A model generated the notes under the pieces. It was not told the DNA's origin and did no database searches. It was given only the letters and a program-made list of their open reading frames with translations. The position numbers were made by a program, and so were the translations under genes. Below are positions 4,738 through 21,544 of a stretch of 23,176 bases of DNA, in pieces; the first letter of the stretch is position 1, and each line of letters starts with the position of its first letter. Origin of the DNA: Candidatus Methylomirabilia bacterium (lineage in GTDB: Bacteria; Methylomirabilota; Methylomirabilia; Rokubacteriales; CSP1-6); NCBI GenBank assembly GCA_041492755.1, contig JBGPXN010000066.1:1-23176 (forward strand). The letters run 5' to 3'.

Positions 4738-6056
4738 GGCACGACGGGATGGTCGACGACCGTAGCGACGACGTCGAGCCGCCGCGGAGGCCGAAGCTGT
4801 GGCCGGTGCGGTGGGTCGCCGCCGTGATGCTCGCCGTGGCATTGATCGGCATCGGCGGACTGGCAGGCGTCGTGTGGAGCGAGCGTCGCGCGGCACGCAT
4901 CCACGCGACGTCCCCCACGCCGTCCGGCAAGAGCAGCGCGGCCGAGGGACCCACCATGCCAGCGGCATCGGCGAGCGGCACCCGCGCGGCACCCCCGGCC
5001 GAGGAGCCCGTCGAGGTGACCCTTTCTGCCGAAGCCCTGAGCCGGGTGGGTCTGAAACTCGCCGAAGCGCGAGTGGCGACCGCCCGCTCGATTCTCACCG
5101 TACCGGGCACGGTGTTCTCGAACGCGTACCGCGACACGAAGGTGAACACGCTGGTTGGGGGCGTCGTGCGGCGCGTGGACGTCGAACTTGGCAGCGCGGT
5201 TCGGCGCGGCGCGCCGATGGCGGTCGTCTTCAGCGCGGAGCTCGCCGACGCCCAGATGAAGTACGTCTCGATGCAGGCCATGCTCGGTGCGGATCATCAG
5301 AAGCTCGAGCGGACGCGCAAGCTCGTCGCGCTGGGAGCGGCAAGCCGTCAGGAGCTGGAGGAGATCGCCGCACTCCACGCGGCGCACGCTACGGAGGTGG
5401 CCGCCTATCGCCAGAGGCTCCTGCTCCTGGACCTCGGCGCCGACCAGGTGGCCCGCCTCACGGACGCCACTCACGTGGTGTCGGAAGTCGTCGTGCCGGC
5501 GCCGGCGGACGGGGTCGTCGTGACCCGCACGGTAAACCCGGGGCAAGTGGTCAACGCGGGTCAGGATCTTTTCGTGGTCACGGATCTCTCGACGGTGTGG
5601 ATCATCGGCGACGTCTATGAGAATGACTTCGCCGCCGTGACGATCGGTGCGCCGGCCACCGTCACAGTCCCCGCGACGTCGGGACAGGCACTACGTGGCC
5701 GCGTCGCGTACATCGACCCGCGCGTGGACGCTGCGACCCGGACGGCGAAAGTCCGCGTGGAGGTTCCCAACAATGGTGGCGCGCTCCGGCTCGGGATGTA
5801 CGTCCAGGTAAGCTTCCAGACGGCACGCGGCCCCCTGCAGACCGTCATCCCGCGTGCCGCTGTACAGGCGTTGGGTGCCCGCTCCGTCGTGTACGTCGCG
5901 ACTGGGGACGAGGGGCGCTTCGAAGAGCGTCGCGTGAAGCTCGGCCCGGTCATCGGTGAGGACGTCGAAGTTCTCGAAGGCGTCAAGGCGGGCGAGCGGG
6001 TGGTGGCCGAGGGCAGCTTCTTTTTGCGCGCCGAGGCCGCGCGCACGCGTCGGTGA
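4734..6056 (+). CDS. CusB/CzcB-type RND periplasmic adaptor subunit
   Basis: N-terminal TM helix, APADGVV...VNPGQVV, DLSTVWI, YIDPRVDAATRT, GVKAGERVVAEG. Start is GTG 4734 (overlapping the tolC stop) or ATG 4749; the ORF-track extension from 4245 lies inside tolC. Confidence 0.92.
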   Translation: MRHDGMVDDRSDDVEPPRRPKLWPVRWVAAVMLAVALIGIGGLAGVVWSERRAARIHATSPTPSGKSSAAEGPTMPAASASGTRAAPPAEEPVEVTLSAEALSRVGLKLAEARVATARSILTVPGTVFSNAYRDTKVNTLVGGVVRRVDVELGSAVRRGAPMAVVFSAELADAQMKYVSMQAMLGADHQKLERTRKLVALGAASRQELEEIAALHAAHATEVAAYRQRLLLLDLGADQVARLTDATHVVSEVVVPAPADGVVVTRTVNPGQVVNAGQDLFVVTDLSTVWIIGDVYENDFAAVTIGAPATVTVPATSGQALRGRVAYIDPRVDAATRTAKVRVEVPNNGGALRLGMYVQVSFQTARGPLQTVIPRAAVQALGARSVVYVATGDEGRFEERRVKLGPVIGEDVEVLEGVKAGERVVAEGSFFLRAEAARTRR

Positions 6057-6081
6057 GTGCCCTGGTTGATTCCACCTCCGC

Positions 6082-6124
6082 CGTCGCCGGGAAGGTCCGC
6101 GCCTCGCGCGGGCCTCCGGCGACG
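6082..6124. terminator. Long GC-rich hairpin between convergent genes, probable terminator or mRNA 3' stabiliser
   Basis: CGTCGCCGG (6082-6090) pairs with CCGGCGACG (6116-6124); AGGTCCGCGC (6093-6102) pairs with GCGCGGGCCT (6106-6115, one G-U); loop CTC; no U-tract. Confidence 0.55.
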
Positions 6125-6126
6125 CG

Positions 6127-6456
6127 CTATCTCGACGCATACATCATGACCCCGATCCCAGCCACGCATAGCGCCGCACCGGTCAGCTTGAATCGGTCCG
6201 GCGCGACGCCATCGAACGCCCACCCCCATGCCAGGGACGGCGCCACGAAGACGCCGCCGTACGCCGCGTACACGCGCCCGAAGTGTGCGGGCTGGTAGGT
6301 CGGGACGACGCCGTAAGCGACGAGGAGCGCCGCACCGGCGACGCCGAGCGCCCAGTGGCTGCCGTGGCGCCAGGCTCGCCACACGAGATAATCGCCGCTG
6401 ATCTCGAAGAGCGCGGCAAGTCCGAACAAGCCGAGTGAGAGGGCGATCGTCTTCAT
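6127..6456 (-). CDS. ynfA: YnfA-family (UPF0060, SMR-like) small membrane protein
   Basis: AALFEISGDYLVW, FGRVYAAYGGVFV and DGVAPDRF signatures; GGAGG RBS before ATG 6456; 109 aa. Confidence 0.92.
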   Translation of the reverse strand: MKTIALSLGLFGLAALFEISGDYLVWRAWRHGSHWALGVAGAALLVAYGVVPTYQPAHFGRVYAAYGGVFVAPSLAWGWAFDGVAPDRFKLTGAALCVAGIGVMMYASR

Positions 6457-6487
6457 GGCAGCCTCCGGCGGCGTGCGGTGTGCGCGG

Positions 6488-7531
6488 TCAGTGGCGATGG
6501 CGGTGGTGCAGGTCGGGGTAGTGGGGATGCCGATGCGCCAGGTGCTCATGGACGTGCCAGTGCACGTGGGATTCGCCGGCCGATCTCCCCGGGGGATGGT
6601 CGTGCTGGTGGTGCACGTCATGGCGATGCTGATGGCTGTGTGCCATCGGTTCGTGGGCGTGGTGATGGTCGTGGCGTTCGCTCAGGTGGAGCCAAACGCC
6701 TACCGCCATGAGTGCGCCGCCCGCGAGGAGGCCGCCGCTGACAGCCTCGCCGAAGGCCACGACGCTCGCCGCCGCTCCGACGAAGGGCGCGGTCGAGAAG
6801 TACGCGCCCGTCCGAGCGGCCCCGAGGTGGCGCAGGGCGAGCACGAAGAACACGAGGCTGGTGCCATAGCCGAGGAGGCCGATGACGCCGGCACCGATGA
6901 CCACGGGCACCGGCGGTATGGTGGCGCCGTGCAGGGTCGCGAGCGCAATGTTGATCGCACCGGCGACGCCGCCTTTGAGCGCGGCGATTTCGACGGCTCC
7001 GGCGCTGGCCACACGCCGCGTGAGGTTGTTGTCGATGGCCCACGCGAGGCACGCGCCGGCCACGAGGGCGGCAGAGCGGTCGATCGCGACACCGGTGCTG
7101 GCCCAGCTCAGTACGGCCGCGCCAGCGGCGATGGCCGCCATGCCGGTCGCGATACGGGCGTCGACGTGCTCGCGGGCGACGCCCCAGGCGATGAGCGCCG
7201 TGAAGACACCTTCCAGGTTCAGCAGTAGCGCGGCCTGGGCCGCGCTGCCATCCGCGAGGGCGAGCATCAGGAGCACCGGACCGATGACGCCGCCGGAGAG
7301 CACCGCGCCGGCGAGCCAAGGCAACTCTGTCGCCGTGAGCCCGAACAATGGTCGGCCGCGCAGCCACGCGGCCAGACGGACGGCGCCGAGACCGAACCCG
7401 GAGCCGAGATAGAGCAGTCCAGCCAGAAGCCATGGATCGGCGACGCCGACGAGCCACTTCGCCGCGGGGGTGCTCAGGCCGAAGAGGACCGCCGCGGCGA
7501 GGGCGAGCGCGGGGCCAACATTCCGGACCAT
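6488..7531 (-). CDS. EamA/DMT-family transporter with His-rich C-terminal tail
   Basis: AAVLFGLSTPAAK, LLLNLEGVFTA, WAIDNNLTR and ARTGAYFSTAPF; 25 His in the last 61 residues. Start is ATG 7531 or 7543. Confidence 0.9.
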   Translation of the reverse strand: MVRNVGPALALAAAVLFGLSTPAAKWLVGVADPWLLAGLLYLGSGFGLGAVRLAAWLRGRPLFGLTATELPWLAGAVLSGGVIGPVLLMLALADGSAAQAALLLNLEGVFTALIAWGVAREHVDARIATGMAAIAAGAAVLSWASTGVAIDRSAALVAGACLAWAIDNNLTRRVASAGAVEIAALKGGVAGAINIALATLHGATIPPVPVVIGAGVIGLLGYGTSLVFFVLALRHLGAARTGAYFSTAPFVGAAASVVAFGEAVSGGLLAGGALMAVGVWLHLSERHDHHHAHEPMAHSHQHRHDVHHQHDHPPGRSAGESHVHWHVHEHLAHRHPHYPDLHHRHRH

Positions 7532-15428: not shown

Positions 15429-17153
15429 TCACCGCTTTCCGGGAACGAAGAACGGCGCGGTCCCCGCCTCATGATCCGTGACGTCGATCACCGCGACCAC
15501 CTCGGGGACGTGCTTTCGCAGCAGTCGCTCGATGCCCTGCCGGACGGTCACTTCCGCCATGCTGCACCCCTGACACCCGCCGTCGAGGCGAATGCGGACG
15601 TGACCGTCGGTGGCGTCGACGAGCGTCACGTGCCCTCGATGAGCGGTGACGGCGGGGTTGATGTGCTCGTCGAGCACCCGGCGGACGCGCGCAGCGAGGT
15701 CATCGTCTTCGGCAATACGCGCCGGCGCGTCCGCGGCCCAGCGCACCTGGACTGCTGACACCTCCGGTACGGCGGAGCGCACGACTGCTTCGATACGCGC
15801 GAGCATCGGCTCGGTCGCGCCCGGCGAGCCGCTCGCTTCCAGGGTCACGAGGCCGCGGTCCACCGAAATGACACGCACCGAGCCTCCACGCGCGATGATG
15901 ATCGGCGCCACGCTGCGTTCGATGACGGCAGTCACCGCCGCGGTCGTGTCCGATCCAACGGCCGCCGGGGGGCTCGGGGCAGGAGGCGTGCTGGCAGGTC
16001 TGCCGGCGCGGGGCACGGTGCTCAGAGCCGCCTCCAGATCGGCGATCAGGTCCTCGGGTGCCTCCAACCCGATCGACAGCCGGAGCAGATCCTCGGGCAC
16101 CGGCGACGAGGCGCCCTCGGTGGTCCGGCGGTGCTCGATGAGGCTCTCGACACCTCCGAGCGAGGTGGCCCGCTTGAAGACCGTCACACCGGCGAGGACG
16201 GCCAGGGCAGCCTTCTCACCGCCCGCGACGCGGATCGAGAGCATCCCGCCGAATCCGCCGGCCATCTGTCGGGCCGCGATGTCGTGACCCGGATGCGACG
16301 GCAGCCCGGGGTAGAGAACTCGCGCGAGCGCGGGGTGGTCCTCGAAGTGTCGGCTGACGATGAGCGCCGTCTCGGACGAGCGGCGAACGCGAACGAACAG
16401 CGTTCGCATCCCCCGCTGAAGGAGCCACGCCTCGAACGGTCCGGCGACGCATCCGGCGTTGCGACGCCAGGAGCGGATCCGTTCCCAGAACGGATCGCGC
16501 CGCGCGGTGACGATCGCGCCGGCCAGGACGTCGCTGTGGCCGTTCAGGTATTTGGTCGCGGAGTGGATCACGAGATCGGCGCCGAGCTCGAGCGGGCGCG
16601 TGAGCACCGGGGTCGCGATGGTGTTGTCGACGGCGACTCGCACGTCGGCCGCATGGGCGATCTCGATGACGGCGGGCAGGTCGATGACGTCCCACGTCGG
16701 ATTCGCGGGTGTCTCGAGCCACACCAACCGAGTCCGCCCCGGGCGGATGGCGGCCCTGACGGCGGCGAGGTCGGCGGTGTCGACGAACTCGACGTCCAGT
16801 CCCCAGGCGATGCCGAATTCGGCTAACCACTTCCGCACCCCCCAGTAAAGGATGCGGGACACGACGACGTGATCGCCGGGCACCAGTGACTGGAAGACCG
16901 CGGTCGCCGCGGCGCTGCCCGAGGCGAAGAGCATGCCGGCGGCGCCTCCCTCGAGCGCGGTGAGCAAGCGCTCGGCATGGTCATAGGTCGGGTTGTCCGC
17001 ACGCGTGTACGCGCGGCCCCCGCGAGAGCTTCCGTCGGGGTTCGCCTCGTAGATCGTGGATGGATAGATCGGAGGAACGAGCGCGCCGGATGCCTCGTCA
17101 GCGTTCCCGAGCGCCTGGGCCGCGAGTGTTTCGGGTGAGAGCTTCTCCGTCAT
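15429..17153 (-). CDS. Cys/Met-metabolism PLP enzyme (cystathionine gamma-synthase/lyase family) fused to two C-terminal NifU/NfuA-like domains (574 aa)
   Basis: YTRADNPT, ETPANP, DNTIATP, HSATKYLNGHSD, ATSLGGVESL, LLRLSIGLE; Pro-rich linker; INPAVTAHRG...GGCQGCSMA..TVRQGIE...DVTDH..G..PFF. ATG 17153 with AGGAGGG RBS. Confidence 0.9.
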   Translation of the reverse strand: MTEKLSPETLAAQALGNADEASGALVPPIYPSTIYEANPDGSSRGGRAYTRADNPTYDHAERLLTALEGGAAGMLFASGSAAATAVFQSLVPGDHVVVSRILYWGVRKWLAEFGIAWGLDVEFVDTADLAAVRAAIRPGRTRLVWLETPANPTWDVIDLPAVIEIAHAADVRVAVDNTIATPVLTRPLELGADLVIHSATKYLNGHSDVLAGAIVTARRDPFWERIRSWRRNAGCVAGPFEAWLLQRGMRTLFVRVRRSSETALIVSRHFEDHPALARVLYPGLPSHPGHDIAARQMAGGFGGMLSIRVAGGEKAALAVLAGVTVFKRATSLGGVESLIEHRRTTEGASSPVPEDLLRLSIGLEAPEDLIADLEAALSTVPRAGRPASTPPAPSPPAAVGSDTTAAVTAVIERSVAPIIIARGGSVRVISVDRGLVTLEASGSPGATEPMLARIEAVVRSAVPEVSAVQVRWAADAPARIAEDDDLAARVRRVLDEHINPAVTAHRGHVTLVDATDGHVRIRLDGGCQGCSMAEVTVRQGIERLLRKHVPEVVAVIDVTDHEAGTAPFFVPGKR

Positions 17154-18376
17154 GTGCGTCGTCCCTCCTCTTTCATCACCCAGGCGACGACGATGCCCGA
17201 GGCGAGCGTCACTGCCGCCACGAGGTGGATGGCGGCCTCGAAGCCGAGCACATCCGCCACGACGCCGGACACGAGCGCGCCCACCGCATAGCCGAGGTCC
17301 CGCCAGAACCGGTAGACGCCGAGGCTGGAGGCGCGCCAGCTCGGGTGCGCGTGGTCGGTGATGGCGGCAAGCAACGTCGGGTACACCATCGCGGTGCCGA
17401 GGCCCTGGAGGACGGCGCCCATCAGCCAGGCGCCGTAGTCCGGAACGAGAACCGTCAGCCAGATCCCGCCCGCCTGCACGATCATGCCCCATGCAATGAG
17501 ACCCTTGCGCCCGAGGCGATCCGAGAGGAGCCCGGTGGCGATTTGCAGCATGCCCCACACCGCCGGATACACGGCCTTCACCACGCCGATGCGAGCGACG
17601 TCCAGGCCGTGCGCGGCGAAGAAGAGGGGGTAAATCCCCCACGACATCCCGTCGTTGAGGTTGTTCACGAGACCCGCCTGGCAGGCCGCGAACAGGCTGG
17701 CGTTGCCGAGACTGGTAACCCAGAAGATGCGCCCGAGGCGTGGCACATCGGCCGGCGTCGCCACCGCCGCCGCCTCCAGGCGGGCATGGCCGCGCGTCTC
17801 CCGCACCAGAAAGATCGACCCGAGAAGCCCGACGACGGCGATGCCGATCCCGAGGTAGAACGGCTCCGGCCGCAGCCCTGAGCGCGCCGCGATGTACCCC
17901 GTCACCCACGACGTGACGCCCACCGCGAAGTAGCCGGCGAACTCGTTCAACCCGAGCGCCAGCCCCCGGCGCTTCGGACCGACGAGGTCGATCTTCATGA
18001 TCACCGTCATCGACCACGCGAGCGCCTGGTTGGCGCCGAGCAGGACGTTGGCGAGATCGATCCACCACCACGCCGGCGCCGCGATGATCAGGAACGGCAC
18101 CGGCAGCGCCAGCACCCAGCCGGCCACGAGGATCGGCTTGCGGCCGATGCGGTCGGACAGCCGGGCGGCGACGAGGTTCAGCACCGCCTTCGTCACCCCG
18201 AAGCTGACGATGAACGACGTGATGGCGGTCTTCGACGTCAGGCCGAATTCCTGCTCACCCAGGAGTGGCAGGACGGTGCGCTCGAGGCCGACCATCGCGC
18301 CCACGAAGGCGTTCAGGCCGACCAGCAGCGAGAACTGCCCCCGGTTGGCGCGCAGCCCGAGCTGCGGCGGCCTCAC
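17150..18376 (-). CDS. MFS transporter
   Basis: NAFVGAMVGLERTVLP, LSDRIGRK, MKIDLVGPKRRGLALGLNEFAGY, GVYRFWRDLGY; GTGA overlap with the MBL gene stop. Confidence 0.93.
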   Translation of the reverse strand: MRPPQLGLRANRGQFSLLVGLNAFVGAMVGLERTVLPLLGEQEFGLTSKTAITSFIVSFGVTKAVLNLVAARLSDRIGRKPILVAGWVLALPVPFLIIAAPAWWWIDLANVLLGANQALAWSMTVIMKIDLVGPKRRGLALGLNEFAGYFAVGVTSWVTGYIAARSGLRPEPFYLGIGIAVVGLLGSIFLVRETRGHARLEAAAVATPADVPRLGRIFWVTSLGNASLFAACQAGLVNNLNDGMSWGIYPLFFAAHGLDVARIGVVKAVYPAVWGMLQIATGLLSDRLGRKGLIAWGMIVQAGGIWLTVLVPDYGAWLMGAVLQGLGTAMVYPTLLAAITDHAHPSWRASSLGVYRFWRDLGYAVGALVSGVVADVLGFEAAIHLVAAVTLASGIVVAWVMKEEGRRT

Positions 18377-19110
18377 TCCCCGGCCAGATTACGGCGGCGG
18401 TTCTCCGCGAAGCTGGCTGGCTGGGGCGGGAGATCCGCCAGCACGAAGTCGACGAACTGGTCTCTGGCGCGAAGCTGCAGCGCCGGATTGAATCGACGCT
18501 CGAAGCCGATCGTCGAACCCGGCTTGCCGCTGAGCCCCTTGCCGCAGGCTGCCCCGCCGAAGTGGGCGGGGAAGATCTCCAGATGGTCGGGAAGCGCGAG
18601 CAGCCGGCCCCAGAGGCTGTCGTAGAGGTGCTCGGCGAGCCCGCGCTCCTGGCCGGCTCCGAGAAGGTCGGGTCGCCCCACGCCGCCGGAGAACAGCGTA
18701 TCGCCCGTCAGCACGAACCACGGCTCGGACGCTCGAGTGCGGTCGGTGACGAGGAGCGACACGCTGTCCGGGGTGTGGCCCGGTGTATGAACGACTTCGA
18801 CGCGGACGTTCCCCAGCTCATGCACCTCGCCGTCGTCCAGCGCGTCGTGGCGGAAGGTGACCGGCGCCGCCCCGTGGTAGAAGACCGGGGCGCCGGTGGC
18901 TGCCGACAGGCGGCGGGCACCCGACAGGTGGTCCGCCTGCACGTGCGTCTCGAAGATGTGGGTGATGCGCATGGACTTCTGCGCGGCGGCGTCGAGGTAG
19001 GGGGCGATGTCAGGCTGTGGATCCACCACAGCGCACGCAGCGGCGCCGCTTCAGCCGAACACGTAACTGGCGCAGCCGGTTGCGGGCGACAGGAAGTGGC
19101 GGAAGATCAT
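18373..19110 (-). CDS. Persulfide dioxygenase (CstB/ETHE1-like) MBL-fold protein, probable selenoprotein with Sec at codon 20 (245 aa)
   Basis: GGAGG RBS then ATG 19110; MIFRHFLSPATGCASYVFG-TGA(19053-19051)-SGAAACAVVDP continues in frame into THVQADH, HTPGHT, TGDTLF, GRPDL, PAHFGGAACG and STIGFERRFN. Confidence 0.85.
19014..19032 (-). promoter_or_regulatory. Candidate bacterial SECIS hairpin
   Basis: mRNA GCUGUGG-UGGAU-CCACAGC: perfect 7-bp stem starting 19 nt after UGA, loop at +26 to +30 with G at loop position 2. Confidence 0.65.
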
Positions 19111-19201
19111 GGCGTACCTCCGTGGCGAGAACGCTCGCCGATGGCCTTGTCTTATCCCTCCAAGCCGTATAGGGTCCAATCCGTTGTTTCGAAGGAATCC
19201 A

Positions 19202-19214
19202 TCGGGAAACCCGA
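19202..19214. promoter_or_regulatory. LysR-type T-N11-A binding site
   Basis: TCGGG-AAA-CCCGA dyad directly before the lysR ATG in the divergent intergenic region. Confidence 0.6.
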
Positions 19215-20150
19215 ATGACGTTCCGCCAGGTCGAGTCATTCCTCGCGGTCGCGCGCGAGGGGAGCTTCAGCCGCGGCGCGCAGCGCATCCATCTCTCGCA
19301 GCCGACGCTCTCAGGGCACATCAGTGAACTGGAGCGCGAGCTCGGCGCCAAGCTCTTCGTCCGCAAGGCGCGCCAGGTGCTGCTCACGGAGGCGGGGCGG
19401 ATCTTCGAGGGCCATGCTACCCGGATGGTGACGGCGGCAGAAGACGCGCGGCGGGCGGTGTCCGACGTGGACGGACTGCGTCGTGGCTCTCTCCTCGTTG
19501 GCGCGAGCACCACCCCCGGTATCTACGTGCTGCCCGCGGTGCTGTCGGCGTTCCAGACGCGTTATCCGGGCATCGACATTGCGCTTCAGATCGCGAACTC
19601 TCGCGTGATCGAGGAGCGCGTCAGGGCCGATGGGCTGGACCTCGGCGTGGTCGGCGGCCACGTCCTGGGCCCCGGCGAGCGTTGCGTGGCGGCCGGGCTG
19701 CTCGACGAGTTGGTCCTTATCACGCCTCGGGGGCATCCGTGGGCCCGCCGCGGACGTACTTCCGGTCGTGAACTGGCGGCCGAGCGGATGCTCGTCCGCG
19801 AGCCCGGTTCCGCCACTCGCCAGGTGATCGAGCGAGCCTTGATGCAGGCCGCCATCACGCCGGCACGGACGATGGAGCTTGGCCATACCGAGGCGATCAA
19901 ACAGTGCGTCATGGCGGGTCTTGGCGTCGCCTTCGTTTCCATCCACGCCATTCGTATCGAGGTGCGCGCGCGGCAACTCGCCATCGTCCCGGTGCGCGGG
20001 TTGCACGTTCGCCGCCACTTTCATGTCATCCACGGCGAGCAGCGGATCCTGGGAGCGAGCGCGCAGGCGTTTCTGTCGATCCTGAACGAACACGCGCATC
20101 GCCGCGTCGCACCGAGTCTCCGTGGGAAGGCATCACTTGGCGGGCGGTGA
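19215..20150 (+). CDS. LysR-family regulator, CysL-like
   Basis: SFSRGAQRIHLSQPTLSGHISELERELG, GASTTPGIYVLP, REPGSATR, ELGHTEAIKQCVMAGLGVAFVS. Confidence 0.93.
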   Translation: MTFRQVESFLAVAREGSFSRGAQRIHLSQPTLSGHISELERELGAKLFVRKARQVLLTEAGRIFEGHATRMVTAAEDARRAVSDVDGLRRGSLLVGASTTPGIYVLPAVLSAFQTRYPGIDIALQIANSRVIEERVRADGLDLGVVGGHVLGPGERCVAAGLLDELVLITPRGHPWARRGRTSGRELAAERMLVREPGSATRQVIERALMQAAITPARTMELGHTEAIKQCVMAGLGVAFVSIHAIRIEVRARQLAIVPVRGLHVRRHFHVIHGEQRILGASAQAFLSILNEHAHRRVAPSLRGKASLGGR

Positions 20151-20767
20151 TGGGACTCTACGCGCGCTACGTGCTCCCACGGTTGATCAACCTGGCGATG
20201 CAGTCGGCCGACCTGGAGGCCGAACGCCGCCGGCTCGTGCCGCTCGCTCGAGGCCGCGTGATCGAGATCGGCTTCGGCTCGGGACTGAACCTGCCCTTCT
20301 ACACGGCCGACGTCGTCCGGCTCGCGGCCGTCGATCCCTCCGCCGAATTGTGGCGCCTGGCTCAGCCGCGCCTGGCGCGGGCGCGGATCGCGGTCGAATT
20401 CACCGGCGCATCGGCGGAACGTCTGCCCTTTCGTGCCCACACGTTCGACACGGCGGTGATGACGTGGACGCTGTGCTCGATTGGTGACCCCGCGGCGGCC
20501 TTACGCGAGATTCGGCGCGTTCTCGTACCCACGGGCCGCCTGCTGTTCGTCGAGCACGGCCGCGCTCCCGATGCCGGCGTCCGCGCGTGGCAGGACCGGC
20601 TGACGCCGGGGTGGCGGCGCCTGGCCGGGGGCTGCCGTCTCAACCGCGAAATCGACCGTCTCATCGCGGGTGCCGGCTTCCGGATTGCCGACCTCGCGCA
20701 AGCCTACGGCGCCGGGCCGCGCCCGTTCTCGTACCTGTACAAGGGGATCGCGGAGTCCGGTCCGTGA
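20150..20767 (+). CDS. Class I SAM-dependent methyltransferase, METTL7/UbiE-like
   Basis: MGLYARYVLPRLI, VIEIGFGSGLNLPFY, FDTAVMTWTLCSI, LLFVEHG, AGGCRLNR; TGATG overlap with the lysR stop. Confidence 0.9.
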   Translation: MGLYARYVLPRLINLAMQSADLEAERRRLVPLARGRVIEIGFGSGLNLPFYTADVVRLAAVDPSAELWRLAQPRLARARIAVEFTGASAERLPFRAHTFDTAVMTWTLCSIGDPAAALREIRRVLVPTGRLLFVEHGRAPDAGVRAWQDRLTPGWRRLAGGCRLNREIDRLIAGAGFRIADLAQAYGAGPRPFSYLYKGIAESGP

Positions 20768-20872: not shown

Positions 20873-21544
20873 TCAGGGTGCAAGCTCCACCGTGACGCCG
20901 ATGACGTCACCGAGCGGGATCCGCGCCGGCGCCTGGGCGAGGCCGCCCGGGTACAGCGCGCTGGCCCACCCGAGCGCGCGAAGCCGCGACCCTGCGGCGG
21001 CCGACGCCAGCGCGCGCAGGGATGCGATCGTGAAGTCCCTGGCCTGGCCGATCAGGGGACTGCGCGCCGCGGGTCCCCAGCGCCGCGAGAGCCCGCCCAG
21101 GCTCCAGCGGTTCAACGCCACCACGAGCACGCCGCGACGCGCGACCCGAGCCGCCTCCGCCAGCGCCACGGCCGGATGCTCGGCGAACTCGAGGGCAATG
21201 ACGAAGACCGCGAGGTCGACGGCTCGGCTCCGGACCGGGAGGCCGTGGGCGTCGCCCTGGACCAGCGGCAGCCGCGGGAGACGGCGCCGCGCCTCCGCCA
21301 GCATCGCGGGCGACCGGTCGAGCCCCACCACGTGGGGCAGCCTGCCCGCGAGCCAGTGTGTGAAGTGCCCGGTTCCGCAGCCCACCTCGAGCGCGCTCTG
21401 CGCCGTCGCGAACGGAGCGAGCAGACGCTCGAGCAACGCGCGCTCAGCTTCGTCGGCGCGCCGACCGCGTGGGGTGGCGTACCACGCCTCGTACCCGGCG
21501 GCCCCGCGCTCGAAGAGCTGCCAGGCGACAGGGCGTCCGCTCAC
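20873..21544 (-). CDS. Class I SAM-dependent methyltransferase (type 11)
   Basis: YEAWYATPRG, LEVGCGTGHF, GLDRSPAML, GDAHGLP, ALAEAARVAR. Confidence 0.9.
   Translation of the reverse strand: MSGRPVAWQLFERGAAGYEAWYATPRGRRADEAERALLERLLAPFATAQSALEVGCGTGHFTHWLAGRLPHVVGLDRSPAMLAEARRRLPRLPLVQGDAHGLPVRSRAVDLAVFVIALEFAEHPAVALAEAARVARRGVLVVALNRWSLGGLSRRWGPAARSPLIGQARDFTIASLRALASAAAGSRLRALGWASALYPGGLAQAPARIPLGDVIGVTVELAP

Follow-up and report, generated by a model that had tools for sequence, protein, structure and literature searches.

CstB of Staphylococcus aureus is a persulfide dioxygenase (PDO) of the metallo-beta-lactamase (MBL) fold that also carries rhodanese domains. According to the available part of a 2026 preprint (PMC12934615), its iron ligands are H56, H119 and D145, H58 holds the active-site water, and residue 13 belongs to the active-site hydrogen-bond network (a Q13T experiment is discussed). 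C201 lies on a mobile loop and is persulfidated; the C201-G202 pair of this loop is described as a glutathione mimic that is self-S-sulfonated. Cys20 was observed to be persulfidated or sulfonated, an observation left without interpretation in that part of the preprint (PMC12934615). The phylum Methylomirabilota has the largest predicted bacterial selenoproteome, according to a recent report summarized in the available part of a review (PMC13188914), where one metagenome-assembled genome (MAG) of this phylum is given 63 predicted selenoprotein genes, with unvalidated new candidates (Deng et al. 2026, cited in PMC13188914). The locus described here lies on contig JBGPXN010000066.1 (assembly GCA_041492755.1) of a Candidatus Methylomirabilia bacterium. 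The window is the whole stretch that was analysed, i.e. positions 1 to 23,176 (23,176 nucleotides) of this contig. It carries on its minus strand a gene (19110-18373) that is very probably a real selenoprotein gene and would encode a CstB-type PDO.

The gene begins with an ATG (19110-19108), preceded at a spacing of 6 nucleotides (nt) by a GGAGG; both were read from the sequence. The frame opened by this ATG is MIFRHFLSPATGCASYVFG-TGA-SGAAACAVVDPQ. The single in-frame TGA is codon 20. It is followed by 225 further sense codons and by a TGA stop (18375-18373), which gives a read-through product of 245 amino acids (aa). An earlier note on this DNA had proposed this frame, with one TGA and an ATG behind a ribosome-binding site, and had reported that the open reading frame (ORF) list splits the gene into 19051-19239 and 18373-19029. 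The sequence bears out the frame, and the mechanical list contains exactly this split.

The position of the TGA is conserved. A six-frame search of the window genome and 40 relatives (41 genomes) found 20 full-length matches with exactly one TGA, 100-55% identical and spread over two families of the order. Codon 20 is the TGA in 20/20 of these matches, in the context GCA(S/A)Y(V/L)(F/L)G-U; TGA-free paralogs fetched from these genomes have Cys at column 20 (10/10; GCLSYLIG-C). A scan of named GTDB genomes yielded 80 loci, of which three lack the N-terminus (L070, L077, L088) and 77 are evaluable: TGA at codon 20 in 27, Cys in 46, other in 4. The 46 loci of the Cys class include 18 stand-alone forms (241-249 aa) and 28 longer ones. 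The four others are L071, whose frame is broken, and L111, L116 and L120, whose Cys lies one residue earlier because of a 1-residue N-terminal offset. When both scans are pooled, TGA is found at column 20 in 47 loci (41 distinct), down to 55% identity. The pooled counts include the unpublished genomes G009 (L024) and G022 (L044), on which no claim hangs; the 60-nt segment of L024 is that of the public L057. Contigs from two other studies (X3 record 20, X11 record 7) bridge the TGA and show no difference at 19051-19053. The TGA is thus neither peculiar to one assembly nor the result of chance or of an error in assembly. It stands where the earlier note expected a Cys, which is present in 10/10 TGA-free paralogs and 46/46 Cys-class named loci; neither Trp nor any other non-Cys residue occurs at the column among the Cys-class homologs. 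Residue 20 (U or C) is invariant across 13 Sec (selenocysteine), 12 stand-alone Cys and 7 fused Cys sequences. By sequence alignment, the structures 3tp9 and 3r2u of the Protein Data Bank (PDB) have Cys at this column and ETHE1-type PDOs have Asp. Codons 2-19, upstream of the TGA, show protein-level constraint together with synonymous variation (37 distinct genes); this region is therefore translated in this frame.

According to record titles, the Sec forms belong to Candidatus Rokubacteria/Methylomirabilota. Some MAGs labelled as other phyla also have a few copies, 75-80% identical and on short contigs; these are probably mis-binned. L085 (Vulcanimicrobiota MAG, ~1x coverage) has TGA at the column, lacks a hairpin of at least 6 bp and has a long branch; its status is uncertain and it is not counted as a third origin. 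Two metatranscriptome records match the gene: X22, which covers only 18577-18728, and X23, a single 151-nt contig over 18938-19088 that spans the TGA. They are not used as expression evidence because DNA carry-over is possible.

The window genome (4.97 Mb, 329 contigs, 88% complete) encodes the Sec machinery for which the earlier note had proposed a search. All four components exceed curated cut-offs: tRNA-Sec, i.e. selC (Rfam, 70.9 bits; ARAGORN, SeC with anticodon tca), selA (584 bits), selB (366 bits) and selD (344 bits). Both selA and selB adjoin tRNA-Sec on contig C112, and selD has its own in-frame TGA in an SCAGU motif. Among the relatives, selA was found in 36/41, i.e. in 18/20 genomes with the TGA form and 18/21 others. 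Other selenoprotein candidates of this genome are selD itself (G000:C248:96615-98500), immediately beside a LysR gene that scores above the NF040786 cut-off, and two ORFs with a rhodanese domain and an in-frame TGA in the active-site loop (G000:C138:9607-9891, minus strand, AYCSU; G000:C288:28191-28466, plus strand, VVFYU). The latter two are probably rhodanese-type selenoproteins.

A hairpin covering codons A27-Q32 follows the TGA. In the main subgroup it is GCUGUGG-UGGAU-CCACAGC, and its loop (19025-19021) starts 25 nt after the UGA. In 35 distinct sequences of this subgroup, 245/245 pair cells are paired; one sequence (L025) shows a double compensatory change, another (L069) an A-to-G change that yields a G.U pair, and 5/7 pairs never vary. 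The hairpin codons (GCT GTG GTG GAT CCA CAG), several of which are non-preferred in this 69% GC genome, have a mean synonymous entropy of 0.06 bits (36 distinct genes), versus 1.03 bits for the 73 other conserved codons in the first 150 (Mann-Whitney p = 3.9e-5). The second Sec clade (4 genes) has a different hairpin at the same place, GUCUAC-GGUC-GUAGAC, with a loop 20 nt after the UGA. For comparison with Cys homologs, a hairpin was required to have at least 6 bp, a G in the first two loop bases and a loop start 16-37 nt after the codon. For distance and loop, including a G in the apical loop, these criteria follow the published bSECISearch model of the bacterial selenocysteine insertion sequence (SECIS). 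Such a hairpin is present in 40/41 distinct Sec sequences (exception: L085) versus 16/55 distinct Cys sequences, a contrast whose Fisher p of 1e-12 is overstated because relatives are not independent. As an internal control, selD and the two rhodanese-domain ORFs of the same genome have hairpins of 5-8 bp with G-containing loops of 4-5 nt located 21 nt after the UGA. The SECIS argument rests on the invariance of synonymous sites and on the contrast between Sec and Cys sequences; from these, the hairpin is classed as a SECIS-like element under strong RNA-level selection.

The read-through protein matches Pfam Lactamase_B (9e-13) and is thus an MBL-fold protein. No NCBIfam model scores above its cut-off; the best is GSH_gloB (TIGR03413), with 85.3 bits versus 200.8. 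The closest solved structures by sequence are 3tp9 (2.9e-50) and 3r2u (3.7e-42), ETHE1-type PDOs giving ~1e-15 to 1e-22. An AlphaFold (AF2) model was computed from an alignment of 32 sequences (13 Sec, 12 stand-alone Cys, 7 fused Cys). Its confidence is high according to the predicted local distance difference test (pLDDT, 90.1) and the predicted template modelling (TM) score (pTM, 0.90), with low pLDDT at residues 181-200 (mobile loop). TM scores are 0.91 to 3tp9, 0.90 to 3r2u, 0.82-0.84 to ETHE1-type PDOs and 0.65-0.70 to glyoxalase II. Y16, G19, residue 20 (U/C), H56, D60, H61, H112, R146, C189 and G190 are invariant in the alignment; C13 and D137 are nearly invariant. H56, H112 and D137 are by alignment the counterparts of the CstB iron ligands H56, H119 and D145, Arg146 is that of R154, and C189-G190-K191 that of the CstB-specific loop C201-G202-K203. 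Sec forms have 243-246 aa, except one of 239 aa and two whose frames run on. None has a rhodanese domain, and the window protein ends at residue 245. The Cys paralogs encoded by the same genomes have 456-466 aa; that of the window genome, on contig C6, has two rhodanese domains in frame. Sec forms have Cys13 where CstB has Gln13, and Gln58 in place of His in 39/41 distinct forms. Two features of ETHE1-type PDOs are missing, the Thr13-Asp network and the Asp at column 20, Cys13 and U20 being found instead. Features of full CstB are missing as well: the rhodanese domains (RHD) with the catalytic C408, and His58. From these comparisons the protein is assigned to the stand-alone CstB-type (type III) PDOs: it corresponds to the PDO domain of CstB but not to full CstB.

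The interpretation given in the earlier note is supported, with a few corrections. It had called the protein CstB/ETHE1-like. The CstB part of this identity stands (3tp9 and 3r2u are the best matches and have Cys at the column), but not the ETHE1 part (~1e-15 to 1e-22; Asp). The start pattern SY(L/V)xG-C given in that note belongs to CstB-type enzymes only. The loop Cys that it had recognized (GAACG) is C189, retained with the following Gly in 41/41 Sec forms, and the lack of a rhodanese domain extends to all Sec forms (~245 aa). The spacing C13-x6-U20-x5-C26 is accurate for C13 (41/41), but C26 is dispensable (33/41; absent from the entire second Sec clade). The downstream catalytic motifs had been described as all intact. 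This applies to H56, D60, H61, H112, D137, R146 and C189-G190, but the second His of HxHxDH is replaced by Gln58 (THVQADH).

Table. Features of the window around the putative selenoprotein gene. Positions are those of the whole stretch; strand: -, minus; +, plus.
Feature	Position	Strand	Basis
Full selenoprotein gene, predicted stand-alone CstB-type PDO	18373..19110	-	Frame, Lactamase_B, PDB matches, AF2 model
Shine-Dalgarno-like GGAGG	19117..19121	-	Read directly from sequence
In-frame TGA, codon 20, read as putative selenocysteine U20	19051..19053	-	Conservation; Cys in homologs; aligns with CstB-type Cys20
SECIS-like hairpin over codons 27-32 (AVVDPQ)	19014..19032	-	Folding, pairing, synonymous entropy
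Cys13 codon (Gln13 in CstB, Thr in canonical PDOs)	19072..19074	-	C13 in 41/41 Sec forms
H56-V57-Q58 of THVQADH; H56, predicted Fe ligand	18937..18945	-	Alignment; CstB ligands
His112 codon (HTPGH), predicted second Fe ligand	18775..18777	-	Invariant; CstB H119 in 3r2u alignment
Asp137 codon (LTGDTLF), predicted third Fe ligand	18700..18702	-	Asp in all 13 Sec rows of alignment
Cys189-Gly190 codons, CstB-specific mobile loop (CstB C201-G202)	18541..18546	-	Invariant in alignment; 41/41 Sec forms
MFS (major facilitator superfamily) transporter gene	17150..18376	-	MFS_1 2.5e-41; ORF list
Cys/Met-metabolism PLP (pyridoxal phosphate) enzyme with C-terminal NifU domain, 574 aa	15429..17153	-	Cys_Met_Meta_PP 1e-106, NifU 5e-28; start and ribosome-binding site
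LysR regulator, divergent	19215..20150	+	Best NCBIfam match NF040786

The dioxygenase gene is the first of an operon. Its stop overlaps the GTG start of the MFS gene (GTGA), and the MFS stop overlaps the ATG of the third gene (ATGA); both overlaps indicate translational coupling. The third gene encodes a cystathionine gamma-synthase/lyase-like protein fused to a C-terminal NifU domain (PLP-NifU). An MFS gene lies directly downstream in 36/39 evaluable Sec stand-alone forms (exceptions: L036, L055, L085), 18/18 Cys stand-alone forms, 3/3 offset forms (L111, L116, L120) and 0/33 rhodanese-fused Cys forms. The miss in L055 may be a counting artefact: an MFS match immediately follows the dioxygenase gene there, the frame of which runs on. 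A divergent LysR gene is present upstream of 33/37 Sec forms, 0/17 Cys stand-alone forms, 0/3 offset forms and 0/35 rhodanese-fused Cys forms; this association is confounded by phylogeny because all Sec forms come from one phylum. The LysR protein of the window gives 241.6 bits to NF040786 ("selenium metabolism-associated LysR"; cut-off, 250; next family, 184.5). The top NF040786 member of the genome (299 bits) is encoded beside selD, and the window LysR is its paralog. The PLP-NifU fusion recurs after the MFS gene in L054, L058, L072, L073 and the frame-broken L071; in L036 it directly follows the dioxygenase gene. L111, L116 and L120 (Gallionellaceae/Sulfuricella) are stand-alone forms whose N-terminus is 1 residue shorter (TLSYFLGCG); they lack C13 and keep the MFS gene downstream. 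Beyond the LysR gene, the window contains two genes of class I S-adenosylmethionine (SAM)-dependent methyltransferases (Methyltransf_11), at 20141-20767 (plus strand) and 20873-21544 (minus strand).

What was directly observed comprises the conserved TGA and its pairing with Cys in homologs, the constraint at the RNA level, the presence of the Sec machinery, the fold and family of the protein, and the operon. Taken as a whole, these observations are best explained, with high likelihood, by a UGA decoded as Sec in a single-domain, 245-residue non-heme-iron PDO of the CstB type. Two other readings of the codon were considered. The TGA could be a true stop, the functional product being either the 218-aa protein of the ORF opened by the GTG at 19029 or none at all (pseudogene). 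The public protein collection agrees with a start after the TGA: its best 120 clusters are all calls of 199-220 aa (120/120), with a query coverage of 81-89% and with "hydroxyacylglutathione hydrolase" or "glyoxylase-like" as their name. However, calls that start past the TGA are the usual output of gene finders at any Sec codon, and the 19 codons before it are conserved as protein with free synonymous change (37 distinct genes), behind a GGAGG and an ATG. A start at residue 28 would remove strands beta1-beta2 (E2-8, E13-20) and the active-site residue 13; the GTG itself lies inside the conserved hairpin, and no GGAGG-like site was seen upstream of it. Nor would a pseudogene retain one TGA at one column, otherwise free of defects, in 41 distinct loci down to 55% identity. 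A true stop is thus extremely improbable. The UGA could also be read as a residue other than Sec (Trp, Gly or Cys, through an altered code or a suppressor tRNA), or the first 19 codons could be a regulatory leader peptide. Codes that reassign UGA exist in some uncultured bacteria, and the residue inserted here is deduced from the sequence. However, TGA also terminates the window gene and 16/20 related Sec-form genes, so UGA is not generally reassigned; homologs have Cys at column 20, not Trp or Gly; the genome has a complete Sec system; and the SECIS-like element, with its strong RNA-level selection, lies at the distance found in the genome's own selD. Both variants are regarded as very improbable.

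A further alternative accepts the selenoprotein and concerns its substrate, which could be a selenium species (selenopersulfide, selenotrisulfide or selenide) handled in a selenium-responsive operon, the other possibility being a thioesterase of the glyoxalase II type. The best family of the regulator is named after selenium metabolism, its closest paralog in the genome adjoins selD, and it accompanies Sec forms only (33/37 versus 0/52). The score of this LysR nevertheless remains under the family cut-off (241.6 versus 250), the link is one of name and neighbourhood only, the association is confounded as indicated above, and regulation by selenium would be just as natural for a selenoprotein gene of any kind. 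Another point in favour is the gamma-lyase-like PLP enzyme fused to NifU that the third operon gene encodes; enzymes of this class can act on seleno-amino acids. For the thioesterase variant, GSH_gloB is the best NCBIfam match by score, but its 85 bits are far under 200.8, Gln58 takes the place of the second His of the binuclear site, and the structural ranking gives CstB-type, then ETHE1-type PDOs, then glyoxalase II (TM, 0.91, 0.83 and 0.65-0.70). Glyoxalase II/hydroxyacylglutathione hydrolase was rejected as the family of this protein (85.3 bits versus 200.8 for TIGR03413; Gln58; TM 0.65-0.70). As a whole, this alternative is unlikely.

Several points weigh against a Sec-containing CstB-type PDO. 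Selenium incorporation is predicted from DNA sequence, and every genome concerned is a MAG of an uncultured bacterium. In 2/20 genomes with the TGA form, G009 (95% complete) and G011 (88% complete), the search gave no selA hit; its co-occurrence is in any case not discriminating because selA is so common in the order (36/41). The covariation of the hairpin is thin: 11/500 shuffles reach the observed score, and no covariation support is claimed. Some hairpin of at least 6 bp is also present in the 16/55 Cys homologs mentioned above, in GC-rich DNA, these hairpins being heterogeneous. The plain minimum free energy (MFE) of the 67 nt after the TGA is no better than that of shuffles (z = 0.61), a test that is uninformative in 69% GC DNA and was replaced by comparative tests. 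Gln58 replaces the His that the authors of the CstB work tied to S-sulfonate formation, so the chemistry may differ. Finally, CstB C20 lies ~29 Å from the Fe of the opposite protomer, and no role is assigned to it in the available part of the preprint (PMC12934615).

U20 of the proposed Sec-containing PDO aligns with CstB Cys20. In the AF2 model it ends strand beta2 (E13-20), where the chain turns into beta3 (E25-29); judged by strand geometry, residue 13 and the iron site of the same protomer would both be ~20 Å away. Redox-active residues are classically revealed by Sec/Cys pairs. The pair found at the invariant position 20 therefore indicates a chemically active rather than incidental residue, and cysteine 20 of CstB, marked by its Sec counterpart, is probably chemically active as well. 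In the mechanism proposed, SelB and tRNA-Sec would decode the UGA of codon 20 as Sec, directed by the hairpin at 19032-19014. By analogy with the CstB work, sulfane sulfur from low-molecular-weight persulfides would be moved to Cys189 on the mobile loop and then oxidised at the H56/H112/D137 iron site. Since U20 lies across the beta-sandwich from residue 13 and the iron site, a second, surface-exposed chalcogen site is most likely. U20 may accept sulfane sulfur, forming a selenopersulfide, and pass it on. Alternatively, its target may be the oxidised adduct of Cys189, which it would attack in the role of the rhodanese cysteine that this protein lacks, perhaps in trans between subunits of an oligomer. 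Cys26, across the hairpin turn (33/41 forms), could give a resting Se-S bond with U20. A specific relay or resolving role of U20, which draws on analogy with CstB, is proposed only tentatively, and an exit of the oxyanion product (sulfite or thiosulfate) via the coupled MFS transporter is more doubtful still. A broader proposal, possible although more likely wrong than right, would make residue 20 an overlooked third catalytic chalcogen site of all CstB-type PDOs. In stand-alone enzymes it would replace the rhodanese cysteine in trans across the oligomer interface, as acceptor of sulfane sulfur or by resolving the S-sulfonate of Cys189. Rokubacteria would have switched it to Sec, possibly repeatedly, in a selenium-regulated operon (LysR, Sec-PDO, MFS exporter, gamma-lyase-NifU) that ties selenium status to persulfide/sulfite handling.

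A maximum-likelihood tree was calculated for 99 distinct PDO domains, column 20 being masked and duplicates, L071 and rows of less than 230 aa excluded. Three changes of the Sec label are required on this tree, a number forced by its starred branches. The main Sec clade has 36 members (support, 99/94), and its sister group consists of 355-aa Cys forms of Bacteroidota/Ignavibacteriota that share Gln58. The second Sec clade has 4 members (100/99) and is nested among the stand-alone Cys forms of Myxococcota and Proteobacteria. The third Sec label is the long-branch L085. The differing hairpins of the two clades speak for Sec gains that were separate or for a turnover of the hairpin. By contrast, the LysR-PDO-MFS context common to both speaks for a single Rokubacterial ancestry followed by losses of Sec to Cys. 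Because the clades share this context despite the tree and the hairpins, independent origins are not claimed. The closest named relative of the window locus, L071 (long-contig Rokubacteria MAG, ~6001-6739; 89% identity), has its N-terminal region and its LysR, MFS and PLP genes in frame-shifted pieces, which suggests assembly indel errors. Two partial contig-end matches with one TGA each (G033:C145:6675-6908 and G026:C166:5616-5933) are ~56% identical, and some genomes may thus carry both Sec clades. L078, L079, L080 and L084 (Bacteroidota/Ignavibacteriota MAGs) are 355-aa Cys20 forms with a THxQADH motif and apparently one extra domain. L122, L130 (Mesorhizobium) and L131 (Paenibacillus) are stand-alone Cys20 forms with His for Asp137 (LTGHTLM), GRTEL for GRPDL and no C13; possibly, they form a subfamily of different function with an unchanged MFS neighbour.

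The family is widespread in soil and groundwater and is systematically mis-annotated, with at least 120 clusters at 90% identity, all truncated. Correct gene calling, metaproteomics and counts of the selenoproteome in Methylomirabilota require the Sec form at full length. The Sec/Cys pair on CstB Cys20 makes two questions testable: whether residue 20 takes part in the catalytic relay, and how CstB-type enzymes without rhodanese domains complete their cycle. The conserved dioxygenase-MFS pair and the selenium-type LysR are a candidate oxyanion exporter and a candidate selenium- or sulfur-responsive switch. No bacterial MBL-fold or PDO selenoprotein was found in the available parts of the literature searched, including PMC13188914, BSepDB (PMC13326102), deep-Sep (PMC12013277), PMC9312934, PMC2398784, PMC1794560, PMC1088965 and 10.1101/2022.07.06.499078; Deng et al. 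2026 (Cell Rep 45:116760), on groundwater MAGs, may list the family. The link to CstB Cys20 stands even if the family has already been predicted elsewhere.

In the same parts of this literature, the only MBL-containing selenoprotein found is the kinetoplastid SelTryp, which also shares a rhodanese/sulfur-transfer context. As far as its description could be consulted (PMC1557815), SelTryp is a eukaryotic protein of ~800 aa with an MBL and two rhodanese domains, Sec in a C-terminal CxxU tail and a SECIS of the 3'-UTR type. The two proteins are compared by description only: Sec of the window protein lies inside the MBL domain, and its SECIS-like element in the coding region. Membership in SelTryp was rejected for this single-domain protein, which has Sec at residue 20 and neither rhodanese domains nor a C-terminal CxxU. 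Known bacterial rhodanese-type selenoproteins share the logic of the Sec/Cys pair and a SECIS hairpin in the coding region, but have another fold, and Sec replaces there an established catalytic Cys. ETHE1-type (type I) PDOs (human ETHE1, 4chl; Myxococcus, 4ysb) share the fold, the iron triad and the single-domain architecture. They differ by their distance (E values, 1e-15 to 1e-22; TM, 0.82-0.84), by Asp at 20 and Thr at 13, and by glutathione-binding features in place of the Cys-Gly loop. Stand-alone Cys20 orthologs with the same MFS gene are found in Polyangium sp. and in MAGs of Myxococcales, Burkholderiales and Acidobacteriota, with more distant ones in Mesorhizobium and Paenibacillus; the literature search found no published function for them. 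They resemble the window protein in size (241-249 aa), in the downstream MFS gene (18/18), in the Cys-Gly loop and, in many cases, in the C13...C20...C26 arrangement, but have Cys for Sec, His58 for Gln and no selenium-type LysR upstream (0/17). With CstB of S. aureus and the CstB-type MBL-rhodanese proteins (3r2u, 3tp9), the window protein shares the His/His/Asp iron triad, Arg146 (CstB R154), the Cys-Gly-Lys mobile loop and the column occupied by Cys20. It differs from CstB by the putative Sec at this residue, by Gln58 for the water-binding His58 and by Cys13 for Gln13. Having no rhodanese domains, it is without C408, the partner through which the S-sulfonate of CstB is resolved to thiosulfate. 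Its gene is coupled to that of an MFS transporter, whereas CstB is encoded in a cst-type operon.

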